A DNA stretch of 54,121 nucleotides from Gemmatimonadales bacterium (GTDB lineage: Bacteria; Gemmatimonadota; Gemmatimonadetes; Gemmatimonadales; GWC2-71-9). Shown here piece after piece: positions 1 to 17,003 of the stretch. The notes under the pieces are model-generated. The model saw only the letters and a list, made by a program, of their open reading frames with translations. It was not told the origin of the DNA and ran no database searches. The DNA lies in NCBI GenBank assembly GCA_036379675.1, contig DASVGF010000051.1, forward strand, positions 1 through 54,121. Reading direction: 5' to 3'. The translations under genes were made by a program, and so were the position numbers. Numbering within the stretch: the stretch's first letter is position 1; each line of letters opens with the position of its first letter.

Positions 1-3
1 GCG

Positions 4-1167
4 TTGACCCGGATGTCCACCATGGTGGCTGCCGTGGCCTGGCCCACCCGCGCTGGGACTGCCACTCTGCGTCCCGAGCCAGACGCCCTCTCTGCGGCAC
101 CAGCGCAGCATGTCCGTAGGATCGCGACCGAGGAAGCGTTCAGCATTCCTGAGGTGTCGGAGGCGCTGCGTGAAGTCGTGCGGCGGGGTGGGGCGAGCCT
201 GGATCTTAAACTCCTGCGCCTTATCTACGACCCCCCTCGAGATGCCTCACCGAATGCTCCACCAGTCGGTCCGACCGGGGTCAACCGGGATTCGCTGGCC
301 CAAACCTTACTTCCGCGCCTCCTCGACGTTGACGTGGCGCGGCTGGCCGATATGGACGCCAATGGCGTCGATATGCACCTCCTCTCGCTGGGAATGCCGG
401 GCGTCCAGATGTTCCAGAGGGACACGGCCATCGCACTGGCGCGCCTCTCAAACGATCGCTTAAGTGAAGCCGTGCGCCGTCATCCCACCCGATTTGCTGG
501 TCTGGCGAGTTTTGCTCCGCAAGATCCGCGTGCAGCAGCAAAGGAAATGGAACGGGCAATCAATATGCTCAGGCTCAACGGCTTCCTCGTCAATTCTCAT
601 ACCCAGGGCGTCTATCTTGACGAACCCCGCAGCTGGCCCATCCTCGAGGCCGCCGAGGCGCTCGGAGCACCGCTATACATTCACCCCCGCGCACCATCCG
701 ACGGCATGGCGGCCCCCTTCGGGGACTACCGCATGGAGGGGGCGATCTGGGGGTATGGTGTCGAGGCCGGGACACACGCGGTGCGCCTGATGTTGAGTGG
801 CGTCCTCGACCGGTTTCCCCGGCTTCGCGTCGTTCTTGGTCATATGGGAGAGGCCCTGCCATTCTGGCTCTGGCGACTCGATTACATGGCGGCACCGGGG
901 TCGCGCGCCGCCCTCAAGAACCAGCTCAAGCCGAGCGAATACCTTCGCCGCAACTTTGCGATCACAACCAGCGGGGTTGAGGACCCGCTCGTGCTCCGGT
1001 TCTGCATCGATAAGCTCGGCATTGAGAGCATCATGTGGGCGATCGACTATCCCTATCAGCCCACGGCGCCGGCCGTCGCCTTTCTTGAATCGGCGTCTCT
1101 ATCGGAACAGGAGCGGGCGCAGATCTCCTCTCGCAACGCCGAGCGGATCTTCCAGATCTCGGCATGA
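4..1167 (+). CDS. Amidohydrolase-2 family protein (ACMSD/LigW-like decarboxylase/hydrolase); cassette-borne; 5' end may lie off-window
   Basis: 387-aa ORF with RRIATEEAF N-terminal metal-site region, HPRAP and GHMGE motifs typical of PF04909-type amidohydrolases. Frame is open to position 1. Followed by attC at 1214. Confidence 0.7.
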   Translation: MTRMSTMVAAVAWPTRAGTATLRPEPDALSAAPAQHVRRIATEEAFSIPEVSEALREVVRRGGASLDLKLLRLIYDPPRDASPNAPPVGPTGVNRDSLAQTLLPRLLDVDVARLADMDANGVDMHLLSLGMPGVQMFQRDTAIALARLSNDRLSEAVRRHPTRFAGLASFAPQDPRAAAKEMERAINMLRLNGFLVNSHTQGVYLDEPRSWPILEAAEALGAPLYIHPRAPSDGMAAPFGDYRMEGAIWGYGVEAGTHAVRLMLSGVLDRFPRLRVVLGHMGEALPFWLWRLDYMAAPGSRAALKNQLKPSEYLRRNFAITTSGVEDPLVLRFCIDKLGIESIMWAIDYPYQPTAPAVAFLESASLSEQERAQISSRNAERIFQISA

Positions 1168-1213
1168 AGGGGCAAACGCGGCGGCACTGAGGACCGACAT
1201 CGCGCAGGCTGAT

Positions 1214-1354
1214 GCCTAACCCGCGCATGCAGCCGACGGGCCGAATGCGTCCCGGGGCTCCGCCCGGGCGCAGCGTCCCGTGAGGACGCTCCCGAACGAA
1301 GGGTTGTGTGGGCGCGAGCTCGAGGGCCCGCAGCTGATGCGCGGTCCGTTAGGC
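1214..1354 (+). repeat. attC site, long type B (141 bp)
   Basis: R'' GCCTAAC 1214-1220, R' GTTAGGC 1348-1354. Arms CCCGCGCATGCAGCCGACGGGCC / GGGCCCGCAGCTGATGCGCGG are imperfect inverted repeats. Same subtype as 2284-2425. Confidence 0.85.
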
Positions 1355-1381
1355 AGTCCCTCCGTGGAGTGAGACGCCCGT

Positions 1382-1741
1382 ATGGCCGACGAGCCGATCG
1401 CCCAACAACTGGTTACGCTCCGCAGGCTGCTCGATGAATTCGACGGCCGCCTGGCGCGCACTCCCATGGCCCCAGTGGGACTTGAGGACCTTAAGGGCAC
1501 GGTCGACACCCTGCGCACGAACATGTGGGCCATCCTCTCTGCCGGACACGGAGCTTTCGCACCGGTTCGGGTGGAACGTCTGAAGCTCCGCCGCGCCATC
1601 GAAGGCCTTAAGGCGATTCGCGCCAGCCTCACTACATCCGGGGCCGGTGCGCTCCACCCCGAGCACATCGAGCTCCAGCTCATTGCGCGGGAGCTCGCCG
1701 AACAGATCGGCAAGCTGGAGAAGTCTGGAGGGGCTACCTAA
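1382..1741 (+). CDS. Hypothetical cassette protein (119 aa, predicted helical)
   Basis: ORF starts 28 nt after R' and its TAA stop (1739-1741) sits inside R'' of the next attC. No family recognised. Overlapping minus-strand ORFs judged GC shadows. Confidence 0.6.
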   Translation: MADEPIAQQLVTLRRLLDEFDGRLARTPMAPVGLEDLKGTVDTLRTNMWAILSAGHGAFAPVRVERLKLRRAIEGLKAIRASLTTSGAGALHPEHIELQLIARELAEQIGKLEKSGGAT

Positions 1742-1837
1742 CAAGCGCATGCAGCTGGCGGGCGCTTCAATGCTAAGGAAGGTTAGATAGTGTCCAAAAC
1801 GGGCAAGTCGCCGCAGCCGATGCGCGGTCCGTTAGGC
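1736..1837 (+). repeat. attC site, type A (102 bp)
   Basis: R'' ACCTAAC 1736-1742, R' GTTAGGC 1831-1837. AAGCGCATGCAGCTGGCGG / GTCGCCGCAGCCGATGCGCGGTCC arms. Conserved loop AAGGAAGGTTAGATAGTG. Confidence 0.9.
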
Positions 1838-1851
1838 AGCCATGACCATTT

Positions 1852-2289
1852 ATGCATGCTGGCATTCTGAAGGCTTTCTTCTTGGGCCAGGCCACGGCCA
1901 CCGAGCTGTCACGGGATTTGGACGTCATTTGGGAGCCATCCGGATCCCGGTCCCGTTCTCGACGGTTCGTCTTTGAGGATCTCGACGAGGATTTCGAGAT
2001 TTATCCCGACCACCTCGTCAGGGTTTGCGACGCTGTTCTCGCAGGCGAAATCGAGGCCCCGAAGCTCGAAGGAGTGGGTGCAGCCCTGTTCACATCCGAT
2101 CACTTCACTTGGGGTGAAGAAGGTGCAGAGGCGGAGAGGGTCGCGCAAACGGTCTCCGACTGGGTAGATCCAGAGATTAACTTTGATCTAAATCTTGAAA
2201 CTACTCAGAAGTTTCGGCATCGGCTTCTTACAGGCGAACACCTTTTTACGCCGGCGGACTGGTGGATGTCGGTGCACCGGCCTGCCTAA
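1852..2289 (+). CDS. Hypothetical cassette protein (145 aa, acidic)
   Basis: ORF starts 15 nt after R'. TAA stop 2287-2289 lies inside R'' GCCTAAC. No family recognised. Confidence 0.6.
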   Translation: MHAGILKAFFLGQATATELSRDLDVIWEPSGSRSRSRRFVFEDLDEDFEIYPDHLVRVCDAVLAGEIEAPKLEGVGAALFTSDHFTWGEEGAEAERVAQTVSDWVDPEINFDLNLETTQKFRHRLLTGEHLFTPADWWMSVHRPA

Positions 2290-2425
2290 CCCGCGCATGC
2301 GGCCGACGGGCCGGAAGGGGCGCCAGCCTCCGCTCGGCCACAGCACGCCCGGAGCGCGCTACGGAACGTAGATTTGTGTGCGGGCCAGCTTGAGGGCCCG
2401 CAGCTGATGCGCCATGTCGTTAGGC
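2284..2425 (+). repeat. attC site, long type B (142 bp)
   Basis: R'' GCCTAAC 2284-2290, R' GTTAGGC 2419-2425. Left arm CCCGCGCATGCGGCCGACGGGCC and right arm GGGCCCGCAGCTGATGCGCC as in 1214-1354. Confidence 0.85.
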
Positions 2426-2433
2426 CGACTGCG

Positions 2434-2691
2434 CTATCGATACACATCGCGGCGGTGGCCGACTTTTACGACAAGCACGGCCCTCATCTGATCGTCGACG
2501 CTGTAGACGACTCGGTAGTCGCCCTGCCGGACTCGGTACTGGTCCTGGCCCGAGAGCTTCTCGCAGCCGTGCGGCCGAGGCTCCGAGGCGAGCGCCTCGA
2601 TGCGAGAGATGATCCTTCTGCGGTCTTTGATGGGAAGCGCTTCCAGCTCTTTGGCGGCGGAAGGCTTGATGAGCAAGCTATAGCTTGCCAC
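2434..2691 (-). CDS. Type II toxin, RelE/ParE family
   Basis: 85 aa. Pattern Y.L.I...A.KEL..LP......I...I..L...P.P.G..KL.G...YR.R.GDYR..Y.......V.V..VGHR..VY typical of RelE/StbE/ParE toxins. Overlaps the upstream antitoxin by 14 nt. Confidence 0.88.
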   Translation of the reverse strand: MASYSLLIKPSAAKELEALPIKDRRRIISRIEALASEPRPHGCEKLSGQDQYRVRQGDYRVVYSVDDQMRAVLVVKVGHRRDVYR

Positions 2692-2938
2692 GCCGTTTCA
2701 GATCCTTGAGGACCTCCGCGAAGGCGAGGCTCGGCTCTCCGGCACGGTCCTCAAAGGCAGCGAGGTCTTCGCTGTCCTCCGCGAGGCTCTGGCGGACGGC
2801 AACGTTGACGAGCTCTGAGAGCGAGCGCTCGGTTTCCGCCGCCTTCACGCGAAGGGCCTTATGAAGGCTCGGATCGAAATAGACGGTGGCCCGCTTCGGG
2901 GCACGCTTGCGAGTAGGCATGCCCAAAACTAACGTCAT
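2678..2938 (-). CDS. Antitoxin, ribbon-helix-helix (CopG/Arc-like)
   Basis: 86 aa. ATVYFDPSLHKALRVKAAETERSLSELVNVAVRQSL is a beta-strand-helix-helix DNA-binding signature with an acidic C-terminal tail. True start may be Met7 (2920). Confidence 0.75.
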   Translation of the reverse strand: MTLVLGMPTRKRAPKRATVYFDPSLHKALRVKAAETERSLSELVNVAVRQSLAEDSEDLAAFEDRAGEPSLAFAEVLKDLKRRGKL

Positions 2939-2952
2939 AGCGCTATAACGTC
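2930..2952 (-). promoter_or_regulatory. Candidate operator of the TA cassette (direct repeat TAACGTCA x2 around ATAGGCTAT palindrome)
   Basis: TAACGTCA at 2930-2937 and 2945-2952 flank ATAG-G-CTAT, immediately 5' of or overlapping the antitoxin start on the minus strand. RHH antitoxins autoregulate through such repeats. Confidence 0.3.
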
Positions 2953-2963
2953 AAAAGGGCAGC

Positions 2964-3065
2964 GGGCTAACAAGCGCATGCAGCCGACAGGCGCTTCAGG
3001 TCTATTGGAAAGTAGGATGGTGCGCAGGCCGGCAAGTCGCCGCAGATGATGCGCGGTCCGTTAGG
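2964..3065 (+). repeat. attC site, type A (102 bp)
   Basis: R'' GGCTAAC 2964-2970, R' GTTAGGC 3059-3065, canonical arms AAGCGCATGCAGCCGACAGG / GTCGCCGCAGATGATGCGCGGTCC. Confidence 0.9.
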
Positions 3066-3082
3066 CCGCTTCAAGGGCATCC

Positions 3083-3685
3083 ATGACCTGGGTAAAGTTC
3101 TTCGCGGCACCTGAGGATTTTCCCCCACTGCTCGAACGCTTTCTCGCCGGGGAGCGTCGTCTCTTTGAGGTTTACTCCGAGCCTGGTCACCACGCTCGCG
3201 AGTTCGCCACTCCTGCTGCCACTCGTTCTCTGTCCCTTGGCCTGGATCCCGCTGGCAGTGGCGTTGCGCTCCACCTTGGGTTGTGGGTCCCGAACGTGAT
3301 GCCAAGGCCCCACGTGCGCCGCATCGAGTTACGCGGCCCTAAATTCCCGCCCGGCAGCTGGCGGGAGACGGTCGAGGGGTGCGGTCTCTTCTGGCTTCAG
3401 ACTGGCGGCCTCTATGAAGACGCCGTTACTGCCTCCGCTATCGGCTGGTTTACGCAGCGTGCGGCTGCTCGGCAGTGCATGGTTCAGCCTGGCCCCGACA
3501 TGGTGGATTGGAAGGCTCACTGGGCCCTGGCGCAGGCGCTCAAGCGCTTCGTTCAGCAGGAGCTCGCCGCGGCGTCTGCTGGACCACACCCGGTCTTGCC
3601 GGACGCCCTCAAACGTCACCGTGACGGCAGCCGGCTCATCGCAGGTCTCGGGACCAAGCAGGAATTCCGCGTGGAAGCGGCCTAA
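3083..3685 (+). CDS. Hypothetical cassette protein (200 aa)
   Basis: Starts 18 nt after R'. TAA stop 3683-3685 lies inside R''. No family recognised. Confidence 0.6.
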   Translation: MTWVKFFAAPEDFPPLLERFLAGERRLFEVYSEPGHHAREFATPAATRSLSLGLDPAGSGVALHLGLWVPNVMPRPHVRRIELRGPKFPPGSWRETVEGCGLFWLQTGGLYEDAVTASAIGWFTQRAAARQCMVQPGPDMVDWKAHWALAQALKRFVQQELAAASAGPHPVLPDALKRHRDGSRLIAGLGTKQEFRVEAA

Positions 3686-3780
3686 CAAGCGCATGCAGCT
3701 GGCGGGCGCTCAGGTCAAAGGAACGTAGGATAGTGTCTATAGGGGGCAAGTCGCCGCAGCTGATGCGCGATCCGTTAGGC
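3680..3780 (+). repeat. attC site, type A (101 bp)
   Basis: R'' GCCTAAC 3680-3686, R' GTTAGGC 3774-3780. Loop CAGGTCAAAGGAACGTAGGATAGTG. Confidence 0.9.
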
Positions 3781-3846
3781 CGATGTCCAACCAGGTGGCT
3801 CTAATCTGGGTTTGTGCCCCAAGGAAAGGAGAGGCGACCGAGTGCC

Positions 3847-4404
3847 TTATCGGCTCCTGACGTTTGGATCAGGCTGGAACGTCACAAAGCCCCCGAGGGT
3901 CCAGCTGACTCCGCTATCGCGTGAGCGCTCGATCAATTGTTCGTACCCCGCCCCACGGGGACGCCAGGTAAGGCGTACCTGAATCGGGACGCCTCTGTCC
4001 AAGCGGGTTCGGAGGAAGCGCCACTCGGCAGCGTCCGGTCGTCCCTCGTAGACCTGGGAGTTCAGCTGGTCATCGACATAGTGCACCATCCAGCGCTGAG
4101 TGGGAGCATCGTACGCCCGTATGACCTTCGCGGTGAAGAGCACCTGGTCATCTTTGACCGCTTGCCAGTGCTCCTCGAAGGCGCAGCGACCAAACAGCGA
4201 CTGACTGTGCACCTTCATGAGGGCGTCCAACACGGTATCACGGCCGGAGACACTATAGCTGCGGCCCTGCCAGTGGCCTTGAAGGAACGCCATAGTCTTG
4301 GCAAGCGAGTCGGCGCACGCGGGCGTGGGTGAGGATTGCGCGTGGGCGGCGCCGCCGACAGTGGAGAGTAGCGCGAGGAGAAGAAGCGCGACCGAGGGAC
4401 GCAT
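3847..4404 (-). CDS. Secreted protein of unknown function (reverse-oriented cassette ORF)
   Basis: Met at 4404 gives MRPSVALLLLALLSTVGGAAHAQ, a signal peptide with an AHA-Q cleavage site. The longer 217-aa ORF start is unlikely. Orientation is opposite to the array. Confidence 0.6.
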   Translation of the reverse strand: MRPSVALLLLALLSTVGGAAHAQSSPTPACADSLAKTMAFLQGHWQGRSYSVSGRDTVLDALMKVHSQSLFGRCAFEEHWQAVKDDQVLFTAKVIRAYDAPTQRWMVHYVDDQLNSQVYEGRPDAAEWRFLRTRLDRGVPIQVRLTWRPRGAGYEQLIERSRDSGVSWTLGGFVTFQPDPNVRSR

Positions 4405-4469
4405 GGGAACTCGTGGGAGAGCTTCCCCCTCTACGGCCCAGCATGGGATAAAGTTTCGTGGGCTGCACG

Positions 4470-4495
4470 GCCTAACCCGCGCAACCAGCGGTGCA
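4470..4495 (+). repeat. attC remnant (left half only, type B-like)
   Basis: GCCTAACCCGCGCA is identical to the first 14 nt of the type B sites. No matching right arm or GTTRRRY before the next ORF. Confidence 0.5.
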
Positions 4496-4520
4496 TTCAA
4501 CTCGGAGCAGACTCGTCGCG

Positions 4521-5081
4521 ATGGGACTCTTGACCTTCAGCATCAACGTCACCCTCGACGGTTGCGTCGACCACCGGGAGGGAATCGCCGACGACGAGAC
4601 ACACGATTTCTTCACCCGTCTCATGAACGAGCGAGGGGCGATGCTGTGGGGTCGTGTCACCTACGAGATGATGGAGAGCTACTGGCCGGCGGTCGCTCGC
4701 GGCGACGAGAAGGCGCCGCCGGCGATGCGCGAGTGGGCGGTCAAGCTTGAGGCCAAGCCGAAGTACGTCGTTTCGTCGACGCGAACGGACTTCCCGTGGA
4801 CCAACAGCCACCGCATTGTCGGCGACTTGCGCACGAGCGTGCAGAAGCTCAAAGACGCTACCCCTGCCGGCGTGCTCCTCGGTAGCGGTAAGCTGGCGAC
4901 CGAGCTGGACCGGCTGGAGCTGATCGACGAGTACAGGTTTCTCCTCCACCCCAGGGTCGCCGGTCACGGACCGACCCTGTACCAGAGCGGGCTGCCCAGC
5001 ACGCGACGGCTCGAGTTGGTCTCGGCGACGCCGCTCCGCAATGGCGCCGTCGCTATGCACTACCGACGCGGGCGCGGTTAA
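4521..5081 (+). CDS. Dihydrofolate reductase family protein (RibD C-terminal domain type)
   Basis: MGLLTFSINVTLDG... start, GRVTYE, KYVVSST and LLGSG motifs typical of PF01872 reductases. TAA stop 5079-5081 lies inside R'' of a short attC. Confidence 0.75.
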   Translation: MGLLTFSINVTLDGCVDHREGIADDETHDFFTRLMNERGAMLWGRVTYEMMESYWPAVARGDEKAPPAMREWAVKLEAKPKYVVSSTRTDFPWTNSHRIVGDLRTSVQKLKDATPAGVLLGSGKLATELDRLELIDEYRFLLHPRVAGHGPTLYQSGLPSTRRLELVSATPLRNGAVAMHYRRGRG

Positions 5082-5139
5082 CAACGGGTTGCAGCGGACG
5101 GTCCACCCCGCAGCCCGCCGCTGAGCCCGGGCGTTAGGC
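5076..5139 (+). repeat. attC site, short type C (64 bp)
   Basis: GGTTAAC 5076-5082 ... GTTAGGC 5133-5139. Arms AACGGGTTGCAGCGG / CCGCTGAGCCCGGGCGTT pair imperfectly. Sequence is unrelated to types A and B. Confidence 0.7.
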
Positions 5140-5203
5140 GGCTACGAAACCAATTTAGGAATCCACATGGGCCTCTCTCTGGCTGTCAGAAGGGCGGCCT
5201 TCG

Positions 5204-5533
5204 GTGCAACGGTCTTGTCCCTGCTGGGCTCGAGCGGCCCAACTCCACAGCGACGATTTTCAACTGATCAACCCCCTGGGCGGAGTGCTGTCGAAAGAGC
5301 AGTACCTAGGCGGCATCGGCTCCGGGCAGATTCACTATTTGTATTGGGAACCTGAAGCAATCGCGGTCCGAGTGTATGGCGACGCTGCGGTGATCCGATA
5401 TCGGTCACAGCTGGAAATCGTCGTCCAGGGTCATCACATCCCGCGCCAGCAGTACTGGCATACTGACCTTTATGAGCGGCATGGCGCAGAGTGGCGAGTC
5501 GTGTGGTCGCATGCGACCGCGGCCCCGTCTTGA
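5204..5533 (+). CDS. SnoaL-like / DUF4440 (NTF2-fold) protein, possibly 5'-truncated
   Basis: LHSDDFQLINPLG..L.KEQYL..I.SG.......E......VRVYGDAAVIRYR ... WRVVWSHAT matches the DUF4440 pattern. Only ~109 aa from a GTG start, so the N-terminal helix appears short. Confidence 0.6.
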   Translation: MQRSCPCWARAAQLHSDDFQLINPLGGVLSKEQYLGGIGSGQIHYLYWEPEAIAVRVYGDAAVIRYRSQLEIVVQGHHIPRQQYWHTDLYERHGAEWRVVWSHATAAPS

Positions 5534-5553
5534 GGACGGGCTCGCGGATCACC

Positions 5554-5654
5554 GTCTAACACGCGCATGCAGCTGATGGCCGCTTCAGGTTTAGGGCACG
5601 TCGAATAGTGCGCAGGCTGAGGAGTCGCCGCAGCTGATGCGCAATCCGTTGGGT
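5554..5654 (+). repeat. attC site, type A (101 bp), R' GTTGGGT
   Basis: R'' GTCTAAC 5554-5560, R' GTTGGGT 5648-5654, arms ACGCGCATGCAGCTGATGG / GTCGCCGCAGCTGATGCGCAATCC. Confidence 0.85.
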
Positions 5655-5676
5655 GGTCGCATTTAGGATTAGACCG

Positions 5677-6129
5677 ATGTGGCCCTGCCGCGTTATATGC
5701 ATCCTCGCACTAAGCGCCTGCGCGCGGCAGCCAGAGCCCGAAACTAGCCCTGCGCTCACCTCCCACGGAGCCGCAGCACTAGCGGTGCTCCAGCGGGGCG
5801 ACTCGGGCAATGGTCCCTTGATCGTGGTCACCACAAAGCCCGTCCCACTCTTGGAGCAGGATCTCTCCGTGTTGGCGGCCGATAGTGTATGGCTGTGGCA
5901 ATCCGATAACCCATATGGCGGACAGCGTCGTTTCTCGGTGCTGCCAGATTCTTACTACGTGCTGCTGGACTTGCGGGAGATCGGGAACTCAGGTGATACC
6001 GCCTGGACCTTTACTGCCATGCTGGAGCGGTGTCCGGGATGGCCATGCCACGAGGAATACAGAATCCGGGTACGGCGGGATAGCGCTGGCTTCGTTCCTG
6101 ATTGGGTCCGGCTGCTGACCATAGAGTGA
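5677..6129 (+). CDS. Lipoprotein of unknown function
   Basis: MWPCRVICILALSAC has a lipobox LSAC. ATG at 5677 chosen over the GTG at 5653, which overlaps R'. Confidence 0.65.
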   Translation: MWPCRVICILALSACARQPEPETSPALTSHGAAALAVLQRGDSGNGPLIVVTTKPVPLLEQDLSVLAADSVWLWQSDNPYGGQRRFSVLPDSYYVLLDLREIGNSGDTAWTFTAMLERCPGWPCHEEYRIRVRRDSAGFVPDWVRLLTIE

Positions 6130-6137
6130 TTTTGGCC

Positions 6138-6235
6138 CCCTAACAGACGCACGCAGCTGGCGGCGCTTCACTCCAAGGAACGTTAGATAGTCCGCGAGCA
6201 GCCCTATCGCTGCAGCTGATGCGCGAGCCGCCGGG
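6138..6235 (+). repeat. attC site, type A, with mutated crossover box (GCCGGGC instead of GTTAGGC)
   Basis: R'' CCCTAAC 6138-6144. Right arm CGCTGCAGCTGATGCGCGAGCC is followed by GCCGGGC (6229-6235) where GTTRRRY is expected. Confidence 0.75.
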
Positions 6236-11035: not shown

Positions 11036-11046
11036 GGCTGTGTGCA

Positions 11047-11144
11047 GCCCAACAAGCGCATGCAGCCGACGGCCGTTCAGGTTCAAGGGAACGTTGGATT
11101 GTCCGCAGTCGAAAAGTCGTCGTAGCTGATGCGGTCCGTTTGAC
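11047..11144 (+). repeat. attC site, type A (98 bp), R'' GCCCAAC / R' GTTTGAC
   Basis: GCCCAAC 11047-11053, GTTTGAC 11138-11144. Arms AAGCGCATGCAGCCGACGG / GTCGTCGTAGCTGATGCGGTCC. Confidence 0.82.
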
Positions 11145-11155
11145 GCCAGGGAGAC

Positions 11156-11596
11156 GTGATGACGGTCAAACGCATGGACAACGTCGGTATCGTGGTCGAA
11201 GACCTCGATGCTGCCATTGAGTTTTTCACCGCGCTGGGCCTCGAGCTTGAGGGGCGTGCCCCGATCGAAGGAGACTGGGCCGATGGCGTCACTGGGTTGC
11301 GCAACATGCGGGTCGAGATTGCCATGCTGCGTACGCCCGACGGTCACGGCCGGCTTGAGATGTCCCGATTCTTCGCACCGCCTGTGGCCGCCGATCACCG
11401 CAGCGCCCCGGTGAACGCTCTCGGTTACTTGCGCGTCATGTTTACTGTGGAGGACATCGACGATACGCTCGCCCGGCTCGGCCCACGGGGCGCGAAGCTC
11501 GTCGGCAAAGTGGTCCGGTACCAAGACACCTATCGGCTCTGCTACATCCGGGGCCCCGAGGGAATCCTCATCGGGCTGGCCCAAGAGCTTCGATAG
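11156..11596 (+). CDS. VOC family protein (glyoxalase/bleomycin-resistance/dioxygenase fold)
   Basis: MDNVGIVVEDLDAAIEFFTALGLEL ... GYLRVMFTVEDIDDTLARL ... YIRGPEGILIGLAQ shows two beta-alpha-beta-beta-beta modules typical of VOC proteins. Confidence 0.8.
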   Translation: MMTVKRMDNVGIVVEDLDAAIEFFTALGLELEGRAPIEGDWADGVTGLRNMRVEIAMLRTPDGHGRLEMSRFFAPPVAADHRSAPVNALGYLRVMFTVEDIDDTLARLGPRGAKLVGKVVRYQDTYRLCYIRGPEGILIGLAQELR

Positions 11597-11622
11597 CCAT
11601 GGGCGGTGAATAGGAGCAGAAC

Positions 11623-12105
11623 GTGCATCGCTGGTGGGCCGTAGCTCTCGTGATCATCCTCTACCCGCCAGCGGCATCGCTTGCTGGTCAGGAACCCCAT
11701 GTCGCACCTAACGCTCCCTCGGACCGGCCTGTTCGCGTGACCGAGCAGGAACAACGACAGCGGCTCGAGGCCGCTTTGACGCCGTACGTCGCACAGGCTC
11801 GAGCGACCTTTCCTAACGCCAAGGCTCGCTATCTCCGAGGACTTCCAGCAGGCCAGAGTTTCTTCGTAACCATCAAGCTCCGCGACCAGGCGGGGCGTAG
11901 CGAAATGGTCTTCCTCGCGGTAGACAGTCTGGCTCGAGACATCTTTGGCCGAATCTGGAACCAGATCCACGTGGTCCACGGCTACCGGTTGCGTGATCGG
12001 CATGCGGTGGCCGAGCACGAGGTTCTGGATTGGCTCATCACGAAGCCGGACGGCTCGGAGGAGGGGAATGTGGTGGGGAAGTTTCTGGACACCTACCGGC
12101 CATAA
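11623..12105 (+). CDS. Exported protein, DUF2314-like
   Basis: Signal-like N-terminus MHRWWAVALVIILYPPAASLAGQ. FFVTIKL....E.VFLAVD....IFGRIWN......GYRLRD......EVLDW resembles DUF2314. No attC separates it from the VOC gene. Confidence 0.45.
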   Translation: MHRWWAVALVIILYPPAASLAGQEPHVAPNAPSDRPVRVTEQEQRQRLEAALTPYVAQARATFPNAKARYLRGLPAGQSFFVTIKLRDQAGRSEMVFLAVDSLARDIFGRIWNQIHVVHGYRLRDRHAVAEHEVLDWLITKPDGSEEGNVVGKFLDTYRP

Positions 12106-12127
12106 GTGCGCGGGCAGATGGCTTGCA

Positions 12128-12160
12128 GCCTCACAAAGGCATGCGGCTGACGCTTCAAGG
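12128..12160 (+). repeat. attC remnant (left half only)
   Basis: GCCTCACAAAGGCATGCGGCTGACGCTTCAAGG compared with GCCTAACAAGCGCATGCAGCTGGCGGCGCTTCAGG. Right arm absent. Confidence 0.6.
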
Positions 12161-12178
12161 CGAAGGAGTGGGCCTCAG

Positions 12179-12625
12179 ATGATTCTTCCACTTGGAGGCG
12201 GGGCGAAACTGGTCAGGCTTCTGCCGCCCGGCATTGTCGCTGTTACGATTCTTGCGTGTTCGGATTCGCCCTCGGAGCCGAGGTTCGAGCCCTGCCCTGG
12301 CGAGGCGGTGACGATGGAGGTCAGCGCCGGGCTGACACCACTGTTTACGTGGACCCCTGCCTGTGGCATGGCGTTCCTCGAAGTCTATCCTGCCGCCGGC
12401 GGCAGCGCCCTGTGGACAGTCTATGCGGAGTCGGGTGCGGGTCCGGAGAATCCAATCCCTTCGGGTGTTCGGTACGGTACCACCCCATTGCGTGGTCATA
12501 CGGTCGCCGGGCCCCAGCCGCTGCAAGCAGGCGACTCATATCGCGCTCGCGTCAGTCGCATGCTCTGTGACCAAGGGGCGCTCTGCACTCTCCAGCACGC
12601 GGGTGACGCGTCCTTTCAGCCGTAG
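12179..12625 (+). CDS. Lipoprotein of unknown function
   Basis: ATG 12179 gives MILPLGGGAKLVRLLPPGIVAVTILACSDS (lipobox ILAC). The longer track ORF from 11945 overlaps the previous gene and the attC remnant. Confidence 0.6.
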   Translation: MILPLGGGAKLVRLLPPGIVAVTILACSDSPSEPRFEPCPGEAVTMEVSAGLTPLFTWTPACGMAFLEVYPAAGGSALWTVYAESGAGPENPIPSGVRYGTTPLRGHTVAGPQPLQAGDSYRARVSRMLCDQGALCTLQHAGDASFQP

Positions 12626-12643
12626 TCCACCAGGCCCTGGTGC

Positions 12644-12683
12644 GCCTCACAGGCTGCTGCAGCTGGCGGACGGCCCGTTAGCC
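12644..12683 (+). repeat. attC site with internal deletion (40 bp)
   Basis: GCCTCAC 12644-12650 + AGGCTGCTGCAGCTGGCGGACGGCCC + GTTAGCC 12677-12683. Left and right arms are fused at the shared GCAGCTG and the loop is missing. Confidence 0.6.
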
Positions 12684-12691
12684 CGTTCGTC

Positions 12692-13363
12692 TTGACAGTA
12701 TCGGGGCAGCTCCACCAATTGGACCACGATCAGGAGCCGACGACTGCGGTACGCCATTATAACCCTCGATGCTGTCCGGGATTCCAAGTGGAGGACCTTC
12801 GCTACGAGCTGAGCGCGCGCGATGAAATCTCCTTTGTCAATGAGGAATGGTTTCGTTTCGCCCGGGCCAACGACGGAGAGTCTCTTCGCGCCGGCCAGAT
12901 CCTGGGTCGCCCCCTGTGGGATTTCATCGGTGACATGGAGACCCGACAGATTTACCGTCTCCTCCACCGGCGCGTGCGGGAGAACGGCACGCCGGTGCGG
13001 CTCTGCTTCCGATGTGACGCCCCTGACCGGCGCCGGCTCCTAGAGCTCGACATCTCCGCAGGGCCGGAACGCGGGTTGATCTACCGCGTCCGCACCTTGG
13101 GGGAACGAGAACGTCAACCAGTGCCGCTCCTGGAACCACAACGTCCACGCTCAGAGCATTTTGTGACCATCTGCGCGTGGTGCGAGCGAATCGCAGTGCC
13201 GCCTCACGGGTGGCTGGAGATTGAGTCGGCCATCGCGGTGCTGCCGCTGCTGGCCGAGCCCCGTCCCCCGCAGCTGACCCATGGCGTCTGCGAGGTGTGC
13301 GTTCAAGCTCTTCACGCCGCGCTCGGCGAAGAGCCCGTTAGGGCCGTGTTGGGTCAACTGTAG
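12692..13363 (+). CDS. PAS-like protein with C-terminal Cys-rich motif (CAWC...HGVCEVC)
   Basis: ISFVNEEWFRFARANDGE...GRPLWDFI resembles a PAS core. C-terminus is ICAWCERI....GWLE....THGVCEVC. Start uncertain (TTG 12692 or GTG 12788). Confidence 0.5.
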   Translation: MTVSGQLHQLDHDQEPTTAVRHYNPRCCPGFQVEDLRYELSARDEISFVNEEWFRFARANDGESLRAGQILGRPLWDFIGDMETRQIYRLLHRRVRENGTPVRLCFRCDAPDRRRLLELDISAGPERGLIYRVRTLGERERQPVPLLEPQRPRSEHFVTICAWCERIAVPPHGWLEIESAIAVLPLLAEPRPPQLTHGVCEVCVQALHAALGEEPVRAVLGQL

Positions 13364-13365
13364 TC

Positions 13366-13419
13366 CGAAGTGAGAAGCGGCTCAGGAAGTCGCCGCCGCT
13401 GATGCGCGGCCCGTTCAGG
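13366..13419 (+). repeat. attC remnant (loop end plus right half)
   Basis: AAGTCGCCGCCGCTGATGCGCGGCCCGTTCAGG matches the consensus right arm, with R' GTTCAGG at 13413-13419. No R''/left arm. Confidence 0.65.
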
Positions 13420-13468
13420 CCGACCACGGAAGGAGAAGGCGATCACTGTCAGCGCGGCTGCTCCCGGC

Positions 13469-14164
13469 GTGCGGGCGTGTGTCTTTGACGCCTACGGCAC
13501 GCTACTTGACTTGGCCTCTGCGGTAGACCCCCACAGAGCAGCGCTGGGCGAGACGGCACCCCGGCTCCTTGCGCTCTGGCGGGCGAAGCAGCTGGAGTAC
13601 ACCTGGCTGCGCACCCTTATGGAACGCCACGCCGACTTCGCCCGGGTGACCGAGGAGGCGCTGGAGTACGCCTGTGCGGCGCTCGACATCCGGGACTTGC
13701 CGCTGCGCCGCAGCCTCCTGACAGGCTTCCTCGAGCTGGCCGCCTATCCCGATGCAGCGCAGATGCTCCGGCGCCTGCGGGCGAGAGGGCTGCGCACCGC
13801 GGTGCTCTCGAACGGCACGCCTGCCATGCTCGAGCAAGCCTTGACGCAGGCGGGCCTCGCCCCGTTGCTCGACAGCGTGCTCTCCGTCGAGACCGTCGGG
13901 TTCTACAAGCCGAGTCCTCGCGTCTATCACTTCGCTGCCGAGACGCTCGAGCTCGAGATCGGGGCGCTGTTGTTCGTCAGTGCCAATGCGTGGGATGCGG
14001 CTGGCGCGGCGAGCGCGGGGCTGCGGGCAGTCTGGGTCAACCGCGCCGGTGCGCCGGCCGAGCGACTCCCAGCAGGCCCGGCGTTCACCCTGCGAACGCT
14101 GGGTGAGGTGCCTGCCCTTCTCGGCGGGGGCCCGGAGGGGCCGCCGGGGCCTGTGGCGGCCTAG
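13469..14164 (+). CDS. Haloacid dehalogenase type II (HAD superfamily)
   Basis: FDAYGTLLD nucleophile motif, WR.KQLEYTWLR, LSNG, FYKP and SANAWDAAGA motifs characteristic of L-2-haloacid dehalogenases. TAG stop 14162-14164 lies inside GCCTAGC. Confidence 0.85.
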   Translation: MRACVFDAYGTLLDLASAVDPHRAALGETAPRLLALWRAKQLEYTWLRTLMERHADFARVTEEALEYACAALDIRDLPLRRSLLTGFLELAAYPDAAQMLRRLRARGLRTAVLSNGTPAMLEQALTQAGLAPLLDSVLSVETVGFYKPSPRVYHFAAETLELEIGALLFVSANAWDAAGAASAGLRAVWVNRAGAPAERLPAGPAFTLRTLGEVPALLGGGPEGPPGPVAA

Positions 14165-14241
14165 CCCACGCATGCTTCCGACGGCGCTTTGGTTACTTAG
14201 GATCGGAGGATAGCGCGCAGGGTCAGACGAATGACTAAGGC
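14159..14241 (+). repeat. Degenerate attC (R'' GCCTAGC, R' position CTAAGGC)
   Basis: Left arm CCACGCATGCTTCCGACGGCGCTTTGG and loop TTAGGATCGGAGGATAGCG are recognisable. The right arm is eroded and GTT is replaced by CTA. Confidence 0.55.
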
Positions 14242-14331
14242 CTAGACCGGCCGGAGCTCACGGGCGCTCTACTTTGAGGAAGCACTGACGCGCGATCGTC
14301 AGGCCGACGCGACGATACTGGCGGAGGGGTA

Positions 14332-14832
14332 ATGAGGCGGTGGCAACGGTGGGCTGCCCTCACTCCACTCGCCCTGGGACTCGGCCCCTGGGCGGCTGCG
14401 GCCGCCCAGACGACGTTCTATGCCGGGGCTGGCTTTGGCTACACGGCAGTGGTGGACGGCGGCCTGGGCAATCGACAGGGCAGCCGAAACTGGTTCGGCA
14501 TGGTAGGTCTGGAGAGCGGGGGCCCTGTAGGCGGCCGCCTGGAAGGTGCGGAAACCATGAGCCGGCTGTGGCTGAGTGCCGATCTGACCTACCGGCTGAG
14601 TGCCCGTGATCGACAAGTGCGTCCCTACGGGGTGATCGGTGGCGGGTTCGTGCTGGACCTGTCGGAATTGGATCCACTGCTCACCCTCGGGGCGGGACTT
14701 CGGGTACAGGCCGGGCGCCTCATCTTTCTGTTCACCGAGGCGCGGCTCCAGTGGGTGCCCAGCATGCCAGCCACATCGGGGGAAGCTAGGCTCGTTCTGC
14801 CGCTCATCGCTGGACTCGGGATCGGCTACTGA
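14332..14832 (+). CDS. Small outer-membrane beta-barrel-like exported protein
   Basis: Signal peptide ...LGPWAAAAAQ, alternating beta-strand pattern, C-terminal ...AGLGIGY aromatic end. Confidence 0.6.
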   Translation: MRRWQRWAALTPLALGLGPWAAAAAQTTFYAGAGFGYTAVVDGGLGNRQGSRNWFGMVGLESGGPVGGRLEGAETMSRLWLSADLTYRLSARDRQVRPYGVIGGGFVLDLSELDPLLTLGAGLRVQAGRLIFLFTEARLQWVPSMPATSGEARLVLPLIAGLGIGY

Positions 14833-14838
14833 GTCGCC

Positions 14839-14887
14839 GCCTCACAAGCGCATGCGGCCGCCGGGCTTCATCGATAAGGAATGTCGG
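14839..14887 (+). repeat. attC remnant (left half plus loop start)
   Basis: GCCTCACAAGCGCATGCGGCCGCCGGGCTTCATCGATAAGGAATGTCGG, then similarity ends. Confidence 0.65.
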
Positions 14888-14917
14888 TTGAAACCTGCAT
14901 CGGACCCCGAGCATTCA

Positions 14918-15496
14918 ATGCAAACCGAGCACCTGACTCGCGAGGACCTGGTTTCGGCACTATCGGCTGCGGAAGTGGACGTTGCAGACTTCTTCGCCTC
15001 GCTCACTCCAGACGAGCTTGTTTTGCGGGTGGAGAACGCCTGGACCGCTGCCGAGCAGCTCGCCCATCTCAACGCTGCCGTGAGTGCGGTGGCGAGGGGT
15101 TTTGCAGTTCCGCGGATTATCCTGCGTCTTCGATTCGGTCGGGCCCGGAGCTCCGGACGTAGCTACACGGCACTACGGGACGATTATCGTGCCCGGCTGG
15201 CGGCCGGTGGTCGGGCTTCCGGGCCGTTCGTTCCCAATCGCCATGATCTGCCGACGTCACAGGGTGAAGCGCGTCGCCGTGACTTGCTCGCACGTTGGCA
15301 CAGGGTAAACAATCGGCTTCAGAAGGCGCTCGAGTCGTGGAACGAGCAGGCTCTGAATACGATCCGGCTGCCTCATCCCTTGCTGGGGAAGATCACCGCT
15401 CGGGAGATGATCTACTTCACGTTGTACCACGCCAAGCACCACGTGACTGCGACCAAGAAACGGCTGCCACGCTTCACCGGGTCAAGTGCCGGCTGA
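14918..15496 (+). CDS. DinB family protein
   Basis: ATG 14918. WTAAEQLAHL near the N-terminus and FTLYHAKHH near the C-terminus fit the DinB/YfiT-type four-helix metal-binding His pattern. TGA stop 15494-15496 lies inside GGCTGAC. Confidence 0.6.
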   Translation: MQTEHLTREDLVSALSAAEVDVADFFASLTPDELVLRVENAWTAAEQLAHLNAAVSAVARGFAVPRIILRLRFGRARSSGRSYTALRDDYRARLAAGGRASGPFVPNRHDLPTSQGEARRRDLLARWHRVNNRLQKALESWNEQALNTIRLPHPLLGKITAREMIYFTLYHAKHHVTATKKRLPRFTGSSAG

Positions 15497-15520
15497 CAAG
15501 CGCATTCAGCCGATAAGCAG
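15491..15520 (+). repeat. attC remnant (left half only)
   Basis: GGCTGACAAGCGCATTCAGCCGATAAGCAG compared with GCCTAACAAGCGCATGCAGCCGAC. Confidence 0.55.
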
Positions 15521-15547
15521 CAAACCACCCTGTGCTGGGAGGCCAGC

Positions 15548-15916
15548 GTGAAACGACCACTGACAGGAATGATACTGGCGCTCACCAGCCTCCCGGCTTG
15601 CAGCGAGCGGGAGGCGACTCGCGATCCCGGGTCTTCTCACGCTGCCGAGGCGGTACCCCGATTGGATTCCGCCAAGGTGCCGGCCGATCTGCGGGATCTC
15701 GTGCCGTACGCGCAGCGCTGGGGGATCGGAGATGATGTCGCCCGCTCAGCGCGGGTTCGGAAGGCCACCGACGCCGAACGATCCGAACTGCGCGCGGCCT
15801 TTGGCCCGCGGCAGGCGCGGATCACAGCCTGGCTCGATTCCTTTGGACCGGGAGCAATGCCGGAGGAGGCGGCGGCCTTCATGTACACCCAGCTTGCCAT
15901 CGAGGAAATGCCCTAG
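15548..15916 (+). CDS. Lipoprotein of unknown function
   Basis: MKRPLTGMILALTSLPAC has a lipobox-like LPAC. GTG start. Confidence 0.55.
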   Translation: MKRPLTGMILALTSLPACSEREATRDPGSSHAAEAVPRLDSAKVPADLRDLVPYAQRWGIGDDVARSARVRKATDAERSELRAAFGPRQARITAWLDSFGPGAMPEEAAAFMYTQLAIEEMP

Positions 15917-15945
15917 GACGCGGCAGGCAGCGGGGATGTCACCCG

Positions 15946-16018
15946 GCCGCTAGCCGCCGGCCCGCTGGTACTCCATTTTCCAGAATTCCCCCGCCAGAGC
16001 GTGAAGCGGCCGTTAGCC
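15946..16018 (+). repeat. Degenerate attC (right half well conserved)
   Basis: GCGTGAAGCGGCCGTTAGCC (R' GTTAGCC 16012-16018) parallels GCTGATGCGCGGTCCGTTAGGC. The left part GCCGCTAGCCGCCGG is only weakly similar to GCCTAGCC-type R''. Confidence 0.45.
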
Positions 16019-16091
16019 AGTACAACGTGCGGAGGATGACAAACACGGAACGGCGCACATTCTCGAAGGTGCCATATTCCGGGATGTTGAC

Positions 16092-16589
16092 GTGTCTCCT
16101 AAAGTACGGTCGTTCTGGCCACTCCTGCTGAGTGTGCTCCTGACCGATTGCGCGACCAAGCAGTTCGCCATCGAGCGCCTCGCGCCGGTTGCCACACCGC
16201 ACGAGGTGCTGGGAGACTGGGTCAGACTCGTCCTTGTTTATAACCGCGGGGCGGCCATGGGTCTTTCCCTGGGATCCTGGGCTCGACCGCTCCTGGCGGT
16301 GGTCACGGTGGCGATGCTGGGGCTCTTGTGGGTGTGGTATCGGCGGACCAGGCGGCGGGATTGGATGACGGCGGCCGCACTGGGGCTGATCGCGGGCGGG
16401 GCGCTGGGGAATCTGCTGGACCGCCTGCGGTGGGACCGGGGGGTGGTGGACTTCATCGACATTGGCTGGGGATCGGTTCGCTTCTGGACTTTCAATGTGG
16501 CCGATGTCGGCATCACCTGCGGTGCCCTGTGGCTGGCGTGGCGACTGAGCCGCCGTCAGGCCGAACCACCTGAGCCGGCTGCGGTCTGA
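16092..16589 (+). CDS. lspA: Lipoprotein signal peptidase (signal peptidase II)
   Basis: LLTDCATKQ (conserved D/K), NRGAAMG, GGALGNLLDR, VVDFID and FNVADV motifs align with E. coli LspA. GTG start. TGA stop lies inside GTCTGAC. Confidence 0.9.
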   Translation: MSPKVRSFWPLLLSVLLTDCATKQFAIERLAPVATPHEVLGDWVRLVLVYNRGAAMGLSLGSWARPLLAVVTVAMLGLLWVWYRRTRRRDWMTAAALGLIAGGALGNLLDRLRWDRGVVDFIDIGWGSVRFWTFNVADVGITCGALWLAWRLSRRQAEPPEPAAV

Positions 16590-16608
16590 CCAGCGAGGCC
16601 GGTTGGGC
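16584..16608 (+). repeat. Possible minimal attC relic after lspA (GTCTGAC-N11-GTTGGGC)
   Basis: An RYYYRAC-like heptamer contains the lspA stop and is followed 11 nt later by GTTGGGC (the same R' variant as 5648). Too short to fold as a functional attC. Confidence 0.25.
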
Positions 16609-16633
16609 CGAGCCCGAAATCGGTGGAGGATTC

Positions 16634-16978
16634 ATGCGGTCATGGAACGCCTGGTTTCTCGCAGGTCTCGCGCTCTTTCTGGGAAGCTGCACCTACTGGG
16701 AGCCCTATGCTCCACTCGCATCTACGGGTCCATCACCGGACTTGCCGTCTTCACTCCAGGTCGTATCCGACACCGGCTCACCCCTGCTGCTCACCGAGCC
16801 ATTTGTCAGGGCCGACACCCTCTTCGGCCGCACCGGTCGGGACACCGTGCGGCTTCCGCTCCACCAGCTGCGTGAAGTACAGCGTCAACGGGTACATGGA
16901 TTGCGGACCCTCGGCTTGATTGCAGGCGTGGGCGCGGTATGGATCACTGTAGGGCTGTACGGTGGCGGGCTGGAATAG
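16634..16978 (+). CDS. Lipoprotein with C-terminal TM helix; paralog of cassette ORF 10048-10419
   Basis: LALFLGSC lipobox. CTYWEPY, PFVRADTLFG, DTVRLP and RTLGL motifs are shared with the cassette protein. Confidence 0.7.
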   Translation: MRSWNAWFLAGLALFLGSCTYWEPYAPLASTGPSPDLPSSLQVVSDTGSPLLLTEPFVRADTLFGRTGRDTVRLPLHQLREVQRQRVHGLRTLGLIAGVGAVWITVGLYGGGLE

Positions 16979-17003
16979 GTCACGGCGCATGGAACTGGGA
17001 GGG
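16977..17003 (+). repeat. Possible attC left-half relic
   Basis: AGGTCAC-G-GCGCATG-GAACTGG-GAGG compared with GCCTCAC-AA-GCGCATG-CAGCTGG-CGG. It starts at the stop codon of the preceding ORF. Confidence 0.3.

Follow-up and report, generated by a model that had tools for sequence, protein, structure and literature searches.

The stretch of DNA examined here, called the window below, comprises 54,121 nt (forward strand, positions 1 to 54,121) of contig DASVGF010000051.1 from the Gemmatimonadales assembly GCA_036379675.1. Its first ~17.9 kb carry short open reading frames (ORFs), each followed on the 3′ side by an imperfect palindrome or what is left of one, and every one of these repeats lies on the + strand; the remainder is ordinary chromosome with metabolic genes. 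The repeats are attC sites, and the part from position 1 to ~17.9 kb very probably represents the cassettes of a lineage of chromosomal integrons that characterises Gemmatimonadales; they number about 25–27 (Table 1). By its attC family and the cassettes that it shares with other genomes, the window itself probably belongs to this order. A first-pass annotation, made from the sequence alone, had counted ~22 cassettes and closed the array at 17003; cassette remnants with lspA and TfoX_N genes extend it to ~17.9 kb. The element is of a known kind, shared by many soil Gemmatimonadales genomes. Gemmatimonadota have been named among the integron-bearing phyla (PMC8618304), and no description of attC sites or arrays from this phylum was found in the searchable literature.

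Twelve complete attC sites were identified in the window by eye, by alignment, with a covariance model (CM) and with a local nucleotide profile. Nine of them are ~100 nt long and share long exact stretches (mean column identity 82%), two of 141–142 nt have the same arms and a longer loop, and one of 64 nt is of a different type. The local profile (nhmmer), built mainly from attCs of other genomes, recovered eleven full-length sites. Together with one internally deleted site and at least 12 remnants, this tally makes the earlier estimate of 13 intact and at least 10 eroded sites about right. The motifs are strongly enriched: GCCTAAC or GTTAGGC occurs 18 times in the window against ~3 expected, 16 of the 18 inside 1214–10530, and the left-arm motif AACNNGCGCATGCRGC (≤2 mismatches) gives 16 matches against 2.1 expected, all on the + strand and inside 1218–15510. 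Neither the CM nor the profile nor the left-arm motif gave anything convincing in the core-gene part from 18 to 54 kb. A scatter of the same repeat next to core genes, which the annotation had named as evidence against an integron, is thus not seen in the window.

The boxes at both ends of the sites, R″ and R′, follow the motifs RYYYAAC and GTTRRRY exactly in six of the 12 complete sites. In the others one box carries one or two changed bases, or R′ is gone (6138–6236). Since a single-base deviation is present in most sites, a strict RYYYAAC...GTTRRRY expression picks up just six, and a generic repeat finder missed them because the arms are bulged. Motif enrichment and alignment nevertheless bear out what had been seen by eye, namely ~100-bp palindromes with these ends, each after a short ORF. 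Seven ORFs end inside R″ (1741, 2289, 3685, 5081, 14164, 15496 and 16589), and the ORF coordinates contain all seven of the stop codons that had been placed there. The next ORF does follow R′ closely, at a distance of usually 12–47 nt instead of the 12–30 nt first given.

The sites fold as expected for attC. On the + strand the layout is GCCTAAC-AA-GCGCAT[G]CAGCTG[G/A]CGG, a loop, and CCGCAGCTG-ATGCGC-GGTCC-GTTAGGC, and the consensus over 150 family members again runs from GCCTAAC to GTTAGGC. Single-strand and consensus folding give an R stem of 6–7 bp, an unpaired spacer of 2 nt against 5 nt, and a 6-bp L stem, GCGCAT. Beyond the L stem, two bulges enclose a stem of 5–6 bp (CAGCTG), and another stem then leads to a loop of ~45 nt. 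Across the 150 sites, 94.8% of the paired cells do pair, against 20–43% when the partner columns are slid. Folding and pairing thus sustain the R″-L″...L′-R′ architecture with an asymmetric spacer and extra bases that was first read from the letters. The complete sites measure 64–142 nt, against a range of 57–141 bp given as a criterion for attC. At Rfam gathering thresholds the window has no match, and attC itself is not in Rfam.

In attC sites the extrahelical bases stand opposite the AAC on the bottom strand and share an arm with the AAC on the top strand (PMC5027507). In the window they sit on the AAC-carrying arm of the + strand and, on the minus strand, on the arm opposite AAC, so that the + strand is the top strand. 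The + strand was also considered as the recombined strand and ruled out, because its bulges share the arm with AAC. Counted along the minus strand from the R″ end, the bulges are bases 16 and 23. A 6-bp stem separates them, and their distances from the R box are 8 and 15 nt, which is the canonical geometry of bulges ~6 bp apart at 8 and 15 nt (PMC5027507, PMC7439510). Motifs, hairpin, unpaired spacer, and position and spacing of the bulges all agree with attC, whereas the identity of the bulged bases differs. At position 23, ~40% of sites apparently have T and the remainder mainly C; where the GG variant occurs, the bulged base can be either G. One spacer arm has merely 2 nt, below the 5–6 nt usual on each arm (PMC5027507).

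The same site family occurs in other genomes. Relatives were retrieved with a two-arm exact pattern, one genome per species, which gave 92 stretches, most of them from Gemmatimonadales metagenome-assembled genomes (MAGs); L-numbers below are labels of retrieved loci. The CM finds 221 sites at E ≤1e-10 in these loci and the window. The arrays of the relatives are single-oriented; on CAVUMU010000005.1, 38 sites were detected over 35 kb (29–64 kb). Several MAGs possess two or more separate arrays, and related arrays are embedded in contigs of 0.2–2.5 Mb. Pattern matches in Clostridiales, Nitrospirota, Brocadiaceae and other non-Gemmatimonadales fail by model score and were taken as chance. One contig of 1.6 kb, assigned to Chloroflexota, is an exception, its score equalling those of family members. 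Related arrays with lower scores are found in the Chloroflexota Kouleothrix aurantiaca (L014) and a member of Roseiflexaceae (L008) and in two Acidobacteriota (L077 and L089), at 25–48 bits, and also in Dehalococcoidia.

Integrase genes adjoin the family in several of these relatives. With IntI1 as tblastn query, intI sequence was detected in seven related loci, which contradicts the possibility that genomes with the family have no integron integrase or remnant of one. Three of them match at 53–56% identity over 315–316 aa (L037, L024 and L077) and the others are partial or fragmentary; a second query, a Gemmatimonadales IntI, returned these loci again, with a few additional fragments. The full-length IntI proteins of L024 and L037 score 423 and 422 bits against TIGR02249 (cutoff 265), over the whole model including the IntI-specific insert ...KYPRAGSSWPWQWVFP..., and in these two loci intI adjoins the array as in a complete integron. 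The IntI of L077, from Acidobacteriota, is 55% identical to the Gemmatimonadales IntI and has the co-oriented layout too. In all seven loci intI lies upstream of the attCs and in the same orientation. About 65 nt after the intI stop codon are conserved in four loci (L024:4757–4822, L037, L019 and L056). This stretch, also given as ...GGTCCACTTACTAGTTAGGC, ends exactly at AGTTAGGC and is divergent beyond, which matches the expectation for attI followed by differing first cassettes. It is a candidate attI at the 3′ end of intI, with a putative crossover at G|TT. Many other arrays, in long-read Gemmatimonadales MAGs (L011, L057, L076, L032 and others), lack an integrase in the 2–7 kb upstream of them; the intI-free DNA before the first recognisable attC measures 7.2 kb in CAVVWJ010000002.1, 3.9 kb in CAWBVP010000007.1 and 3 kb in CAVSTR010000004.1. 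Fragments or weak remnants of intI were seen in L009, L028, L056 and L023, the one in L009 (7139–7267) being a piece of 43 aa just upstream of the first attC.

Imperfect intergenic palindromes that are conserved in sequence and show little covariation could in principle be repetitive extragenic palindromic (REP) or bacterial interspersed mosaic (BIME) elements, miniature inverted-repeat transposable elements (MITEs) or terminators. Such an origin is extremely improbable here. The repeats keep a single orientation within one 18-kb block and are absent from 36 kb of core genes, their ends are the integron core and inverse-core motifs, and their bulge geometry fits attC. Moreover, the family abuts integron integrases in relatives, where arrays are likewise single-oriented and in some cases headed by intI; cassette borders are where homology between genomes stops; and Rfam has no match.

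The bulge position, the layout in the relatives and a gradient of decay place the integrase-proximal end of the array on the left. Profile scores in the window drop from left to right (rho = −0.51, p = 0.025), with no complete site past 11.2 kb, and in a relative with known intI position model scores drop with distance from intI (rho = −0.59, p = 2e-4). Most distal remnants lack L′-R′ but still possess the R″-L″ arm with some of the loop. The sole right-arm-only remnant lies at 13383–13419, and two sites have collapsed to R″ and R′ (12644–12683 and 16584–16608). One-armed and collapsed sites cannot fold, and their cassettes are therefore fixed. Read in this way, the sequence supports a polarity with the intI side to the left of position 1, as the orientation of R″ and R′ on the + strand had indicated from the start.

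Several observations weigh against the reading as the array of an integron. The CM was trained on the window's own nine ~100-nt sites, which it recovers by construction, although the 64-nt site and the sites of relatives are independent of this training. Since the family varies so little in sequence, covariation of paired bases is almost absent, and it is conserved palindromy and geometry that sustain the fold. At position 16, 149 of 150 sites have C as the bulged base in place of the usual G. No IntI-like sequence was detected in the window by tblastn with either query, so that intI does not adjoin the array within the window, and the array runs off the left edge; attI is not in the window either, nor is Pc, for which no search was made. 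Finally, many related arrays have no integrase nearby, and most of those on long contigs have no IntI within 2–7 kb upstream. The last points bear on a more specific alternative, that the array is a cluster of attC sites lacking integron-integrases (CALIN), a term for two or more clustered attCs that have no integron integrase within a few kb of the ends of the cluster. Such an array would have been separated from its integrase or have outlived it, and would be inert or mobilised only in trans. We place this possibility somewhat below an even chance. It draws on the intI-free upstream DNA of the long-contig relatives, the MAGs with two or more arrays, the intI fragments and the decayed distal sites of the window. 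However, intI is excluded only from the right side and the inside of the array, while the left end of the window is still within the array. All 12 complete sites, nine of them canonical in their R boxes, are in the left 11 kb, a sign that maintenance may be continuing or was recent; in seven related loci the array is indeed headed by intI sequence; and the upstream DNA of the relatives might hold attCs of other types that the family-specific profile misses. Because most long-contig arrays of relatives are without IntI 2–7 kb upstream, multiple arrays occur and intI fragments are found, the chance of an intact intI directly upstream of this array is about one half. In either case the content of the window is the same.

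The integron array borders ordinary chromosome on its right. Among the products of the 36-kb flank are a thiolase, a 3-hydroxyacyl-CoA dehydrogenase, GH15, TerC, an MscS-like channel and an AIR-synthase-related protein. Genes for a transposase, a relaxase or replication were not seen in it, and a tRNA scan of the window found none. This core-gene flank, an array of more than ~20 cassettes and highly similar attCs are the marks of a sedentary chromosomal integron, the type to which the first-pass annotation had assigned the array. A mobile integron on a plasmid or transposon is very improbable. What speaks for it comes from PLSDB, where two cassette ORFs, and only these, have matches on large plasmids or chromids (replicons L175–L178). 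The RibD_C gene (4520–5075) is 86.8% identical in nucleotides to one on a Variovorax replicon and 82.9% to one on a Deinococcus plasmid, and the VOC gene (11144–11589) 86.8% to one on a Paraburkholderia replicon and 82.6% to one on a Deinococcus plasmid. But this homology is confined to single ORFs (2–3% of the query), ends at cassette borders, and no attC of the family was found on the matched replicons. In addition, ~25 cassettes with near-identical attCs are typical of sedentary integrons, and the related arrays lie in long contigs. The matches suggest that the RibD_C and VOC genes may have moved recently across phyla. The Paraburkholderia VOC gene stands between copies of a direct repeat of 25 nt (CAGCGTTACGATCG core), a weak right-arm-like stretch, GATGCGCGGTCC (E 0.38), lies just 3′ of the Variovorax RibD_C gene, and a Deinococcus plasmid has a tandem arrangement of four genes of the RibD_C family and one VOC gene.

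Between the window and related loci, homology follows cassette borders. Cassette 22 (15516–15923) is 91% identical in nucleotides and 90% in amino acids to L042:1861–2268, which lies between two intact attCs, and the homology begins one base past the upstream attC of L042. The ParE/RHH cassette has a copy beside an attC in L092 (87.6% nucleotide identity), the VOC cassette matches L012 (85%) from the R′ boundary onwards, and cassette 2 has a copy next to an attC in L005 (85%). More distant counterparts are those of the cassette 18 ORF in L074 (65% aa, beside an attC) and of the cassette 24 lipoprotein in L013 (41% aa, just upstream of an attC). As far as sequence comparison goes, the cassette is the unit of exchange between genomes. 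A TfoX_N homologue (68% aa) is a cassette between two intact attCs in L017:4553–5131. Since the homologues of TfoX_N and lspA are flanked by attCs elsewhere, the cassette-derived region reaches ~17.9 kb. The lspA homologues are attC-flanked cassettes in L078:956–1692, from another Gemmatimonadales MAG; lspA is normally a housekeeping gene for lipoprotein processing, and it appears to circulate as an integron cassette, in an array that holds eight predicted lipoproteins. In L078:1–2700 an attC stands on the minus strand at 533–633 and others on the plus strand from 956, so that the arrays or array ends face apart, with mirrored lspA and DUF4440 fragments around ~780; either the assembly is at fault here or the segment is an inverted duplication. 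For the cassette 1 amidohydrolase the picture is different: a scan of metagenomes gave 80 loci on soil contigs (L095–L174, 57–81% aa), none with this attC family or IntI. They were rejected as instances of the same array, being ordinary chromosomal homologues, and because they have no adjoining attC, the cassette 1 gene comes from a family that is usually not cassette-borne.

It should also be considered that the order of cassettes is partly an artefact of assembly, with cassettes of different strains threaded through near-identical attCs, in which case the array would be real in kind and chimeric in content. The high identity of the attCs, with their long exact stretches, would permit this; the window begins inside the array, as is typical of assembly breaks at repeats, and it is absent from the reference genome collection searched. 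This explanation has a low probability. A Logan contig of 1,043 bp (SRR25158495) matches 2669–3709 at 99.9% and reproduces the cassette-attC-cassette junctions in an independent assembly. Furthermore, the eroded distal sites are unique sequence and cannot cause misjoins, and the decay from left to right is orderly. Exact-protein look-ups of four window proteins returned this contig and nothing else, and hence no sequence left of position 1.

The content of the cassettes is given in Table 1. About half of the ~28 cassette ORFs have Pfam matches and about half have none, so that the lack of a recognisable family, first ascribed to most cassette products, applies to about half of them. The families are Amidohydro_2, ParE, RHH, RibD_C, DUF4440, alpha/beta hydrolase, DUF2269, glyoxalase/VOC, HAD, DinB_2, signal peptidase II and TfoX_N, with two weak matches in addition. 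PADLOC found no anti-phage defence match among ten family-less cassette proteins. Eight ORFs have a lipobox and four more a Sec-type signal peptide; the lipobox of the alpha/beta hydrolase was read by eye. The lipoproteins 10048–10419 and 16634–16978 are paralogues (38% identity, E 1e-15). The cassettes had been described as host-like in GC, which is roughly true overall (63.7% against 67.4% in the core), but the median GC content at third codon positions (GC3) is clearly lower in cassette genes (1–17899) than in core genes (17937–54121), 0.72 against 0.83 (p = 8e-8). Exceptions with high GC3 are RibD_C (0.85), HAD (0.84) and the membrane protein 17008–17391 (0.84), whose membership of the array is uncertain.

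Table 1. Cassettes of the array from left to right, with their genes and 3′ sites. "Profile" is the local nucleotide profile and bits are CM scores.
Cassette	Position	Strand	Gene(s)	Site
1 (cut at window edge)	1–1354	+	Amidohydro_2 22–1167 (Pfam E 2.4e-38)	complete attC 1214–1354 (141 nt, long loop), nhmmer E 5e-9
2	1355–1837	+	ORF 1382–1741, 119 aa, no family	complete ~100-nt attC 1736–1837, 109.6 bits; stop in R″
3	1838–2425	+	ORF 1852–2289, 145 aa, no family	complete attC 2284–2425 (142 nt, long loop), nhmmer E 4.5e-7
4	2426–3066	genes −, attC +	ParE 2434–2691 (ParE_toxin E 4e-12); RHH antitoxin 2678–2938	complete ~100-nt attC 2965–3066
5	3067–3780	+	ORF 3083–3685, 200 aa, no family	complete ~100-nt attC 3680–3780, 110.1 bits
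6	3781–4492	gene −, remnant +	secreted protein 3847–4404 (signal peptide)	left-arm remnant 4470–4492, GCCTAACCCGCGCAACCAGC, 2 mismatches, by eye
7	4493–5139	+	RibD_C/dihydrofolate-reductase family 4521–5081 (Pfam E 2.8e-14)	complete 64-nt attC 5076–5139, different type, CM E 1.5e-4, outside the training set
8	5140–5654	+	DUF4440 5204–5533	complete ~100-nt attC 5554–5654, 102 bits
9	5655–6236	+	lipoprotein ORF 5653/5687–6129	complete ~100-nt attC 6138–6236, R′ degenerate, 82.7 bits
10	6237–6815	+	lipoprotein 6257–6760	left-arm remnant 6799–6815, GCCCAACAAGCACAC, by eye only
11	6816–7964	+	alpha/beta hydrolase 6825–7844 (Pfam E 8.9e-28)	left-arm remnants 7855–7883 (nhmmer E 0.3, weaker) and 7915–7964 (nhmmer E 3e-9)
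12	7965–8584	+	DUF2269 membrane protein 7998–8468	complete ~100-nt attC 8484–8584, R′ GTTCGGC, 110.4 bits
13	8585–10023	+	secreted outer-membrane-protein-like 8756–9871	complete ~100-nt attC 9922–10023, R″ GCCTGAC, 93.5 bits
14	10024–10530	+	lipoprotein 10048–10419	complete ~100-nt attC 10431–10530, 106.5 bits
15	10531–11144	+	lipoprotein 10577–11035	last complete attC, ~100 nt, 11047–11144, R′ GTTTGAC, 85.3 bits
16 (possibly two fused)	11145–12169	+	VOC/glyoxalase 11156–11596; secreted 160-aa ORF 11623–12105	left-arm remnant 12128–12169, profile E 5e-3
17	12170–12683	+	lipoprotein 12179–12625	internally deleted attC 12644–12683, GCCTCAC...GTTAGCC, 40 nt, CM E 0.019; weaker profile match at 12646
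18	12684–13419	+	ORF 12692–13363, no family	right-arm remnant 13383–13419, profile positions 65–97; profile match 13383–13415, E 1e-5
19	13420–14221	+	HAD hydrolase 13469–14164 (Pfam E 8.9e-25)	left-half remnant 14159–14221, profile E 4e-5; stop in R″ GCCTAGC
20	14222–14889	+	secreted 166-aa ORF 14332–14832 (signal peptide)	left-half remnant 14839–14889, profile E 4e-7
21	14890–15513	+	DinB_2 14918–15496 (Pfam E 1.5e-11)	left-arm remnant 15491–15513, E 0.37 (weaker profile match at 15492); stop in R″ GGCTGAC
22	15514–16018	+	lipoprotein 15548–15916	degenerate attC ~15905–16018, by eye, ending GTTAGCC 16012–16018
23	16019–16608	+	lspA 16092–16589 (Peptidase_A8 E 1.2e-34)	collapsed attC 16584–16608, by eye, R″ GTCTGAC and R′ GTTGGGC; stop in GTCTGAC
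24	16609–17000	+	lipoprotein 16634–16978	weak left-arm remnant ~16979–17000, AGGTCACGGCGCATGGAACTGG, by eye
Probable last 1–2 cassette-derived genes	17001–17899	+	membrane protein 17008–17391; TfoX_N 17543–17899 (Pfam E 2.6e-28)	weak attC-like stretch 17456–17544, by eye

Some cassettes show peculiarities of their own. In cassette 8 an ATG at 5167 with a signal-peptide-like start is out of frame with the DUF4440 domain ORF, which suggests a frameshifted pseudogene; the homologue in L055 likewise aligns in two frames. The paired remnants at 7855–7964, which also register as a direct repeat, are spaced by 60 nt, and no ORF separates them; they represent a local duplication or else a cassette that is empty or has collapsed. 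In the one-armed remnant at 12128–12181 the conserved loop motif AAGGAG stands a few nucleotides 5′ of the ATG at 12179, so this half-site may now provide the ribosome-binding site of the following gene. At the right end a weak RYYYAAC...GTTRRRY stretch (17456–17544) precedes the TfoX_N gene and overlaps its start codon. A carbonic anhydrase gene starts 37 nt past TfoX_N with no site between, and is taken, with moderate confidence, as the first non-cassette gene.

For recombination activity, the mode of cassette expression and the integrase of this genome, we infer the following scheme. Each unit would consist of a promoterless ORF and its 3′ attC. The minus strand would be the recombinogenic bottom strand, whose single-stranded form is predicted to fold into the hairpin with R box, spacer, L box and two bulges. 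IntI would recognise this hairpin, excising cassettes by attC × attC recombination and inserting them at attI by attI × attC recombination. By analogy with the relatives, where intI, its stop codon, the ~65-bp attI-like stretch and the cassettes follow each other on one strand, the platform, if extant, should lie left of position 1. The left 11 kb with their complete sites could still be mobilised by IntI in cis or in trans, while the right 7 kb are fossilised, their HAD, DinB, lspA, TfoX_N and lipoprotein genes having become fixed chromosomal genes. A stabilising effect on the array probably comes from the reversed toxin-antitoxin cassette, ParE/RHH.

Variations worth noting, for which no functional relevance is claimed, are C at position 16, the 5/2 spacer, the conservation of sites across the order and the one-armed erosion. 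It is doubtful that the Gemmatimonadales family constitutes a distinct functional variant, defined by C16, the 5/2 spacer and an intI whose 3′ end abuts attI and from which read-through may transcribe the cassettes. If it did, the integrase would have co-evolved other contacts for strand choice, cassettes, an extra lspA and a TfoX_N gene among them, would regularly become fixed through one-armed erosion, and the identity of the RibD_C and VOC genes to those of Betaproteobacteria and Deinococcus (83–87% nt) would mark recent cassette traffic across phyla. Independently of this, an attC family that is well defined and spans the order is now available from the locus and its relatives, along with a reference integrase with an attI-like site, and the array is a clear example of one caught between a mobilisable and a fossil part. 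Taxon-specific attC models, host assignment of cassettes in soil metagenomes and the study of cassette fixation are possible uses, with about half of the cassette products being of unknown function. The general picture of integron function is unchanged.

The superintegron of Vibrio cholerae is the textbook sedentary chromosomal integron. Like it, the array described here is long and chromosomal, with near-identical, long-loop attCs of 100–140 nt (Vibrio cholerae repeats, VCRs, in that species), cassettes mostly of unknown function, interspersed toxin-antitoxin cassettes, stop codons in R″ and bulges opposite AAC on the bottom strand. In Vibrio, however, intI is divergent, whereas it is co-oriented in the Gemmatimonadales relatives, and the distal third of the array in the window is eroded. 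The bulges here are C/C or C/T instead of the typical G and T (PMC7439510), VCR2 has three extrahelical bases, G16/T20/T24 (PMC5027507), and the 5/2-nt spacer of the window again departs from the usual length on each arm (PMC5027507). With class 1 mobile integrons the array shares the recombination logic, and the relatives' IntI resembles IntI1 (53–56% identity over 315 aa); the short arrays, diverse short attCs, transposons or plasmids, divergent intI1 and resistance cassettes of that class were not seen here. Chromosomal integrons of Xanthomonas are said to have lineage-specific attCs and frequent decay of intI and attC that leaves fixed cassettes. The present array is alike in its chromosomal location, lineage-specific attCs and decay leaving fixed cassettes, and unlike in phylum, attC sequence family and intI orientation. 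It resembles CALINs in having at least 12 attCs and no integrase in the window, as do many related arrays without a nearby intI, but it runs off the window edge, so that the operational criterion is not applicable. In layout the relatives correspond to the 'inverted integrase group', for which PMC3575428 cites Boucher et al. 2007, a structure type that IntegronFinder 2 also recognises (PMC13323075). The platform is not seen in the window and the attC family is a Gemmatimonadales-specific ~100-nt repeat; in common with that group, intI of the relatives lies upstream, co-oriented, with its 3′ end facing attI, and the polarity of the attCs in the window fits this arrangement.

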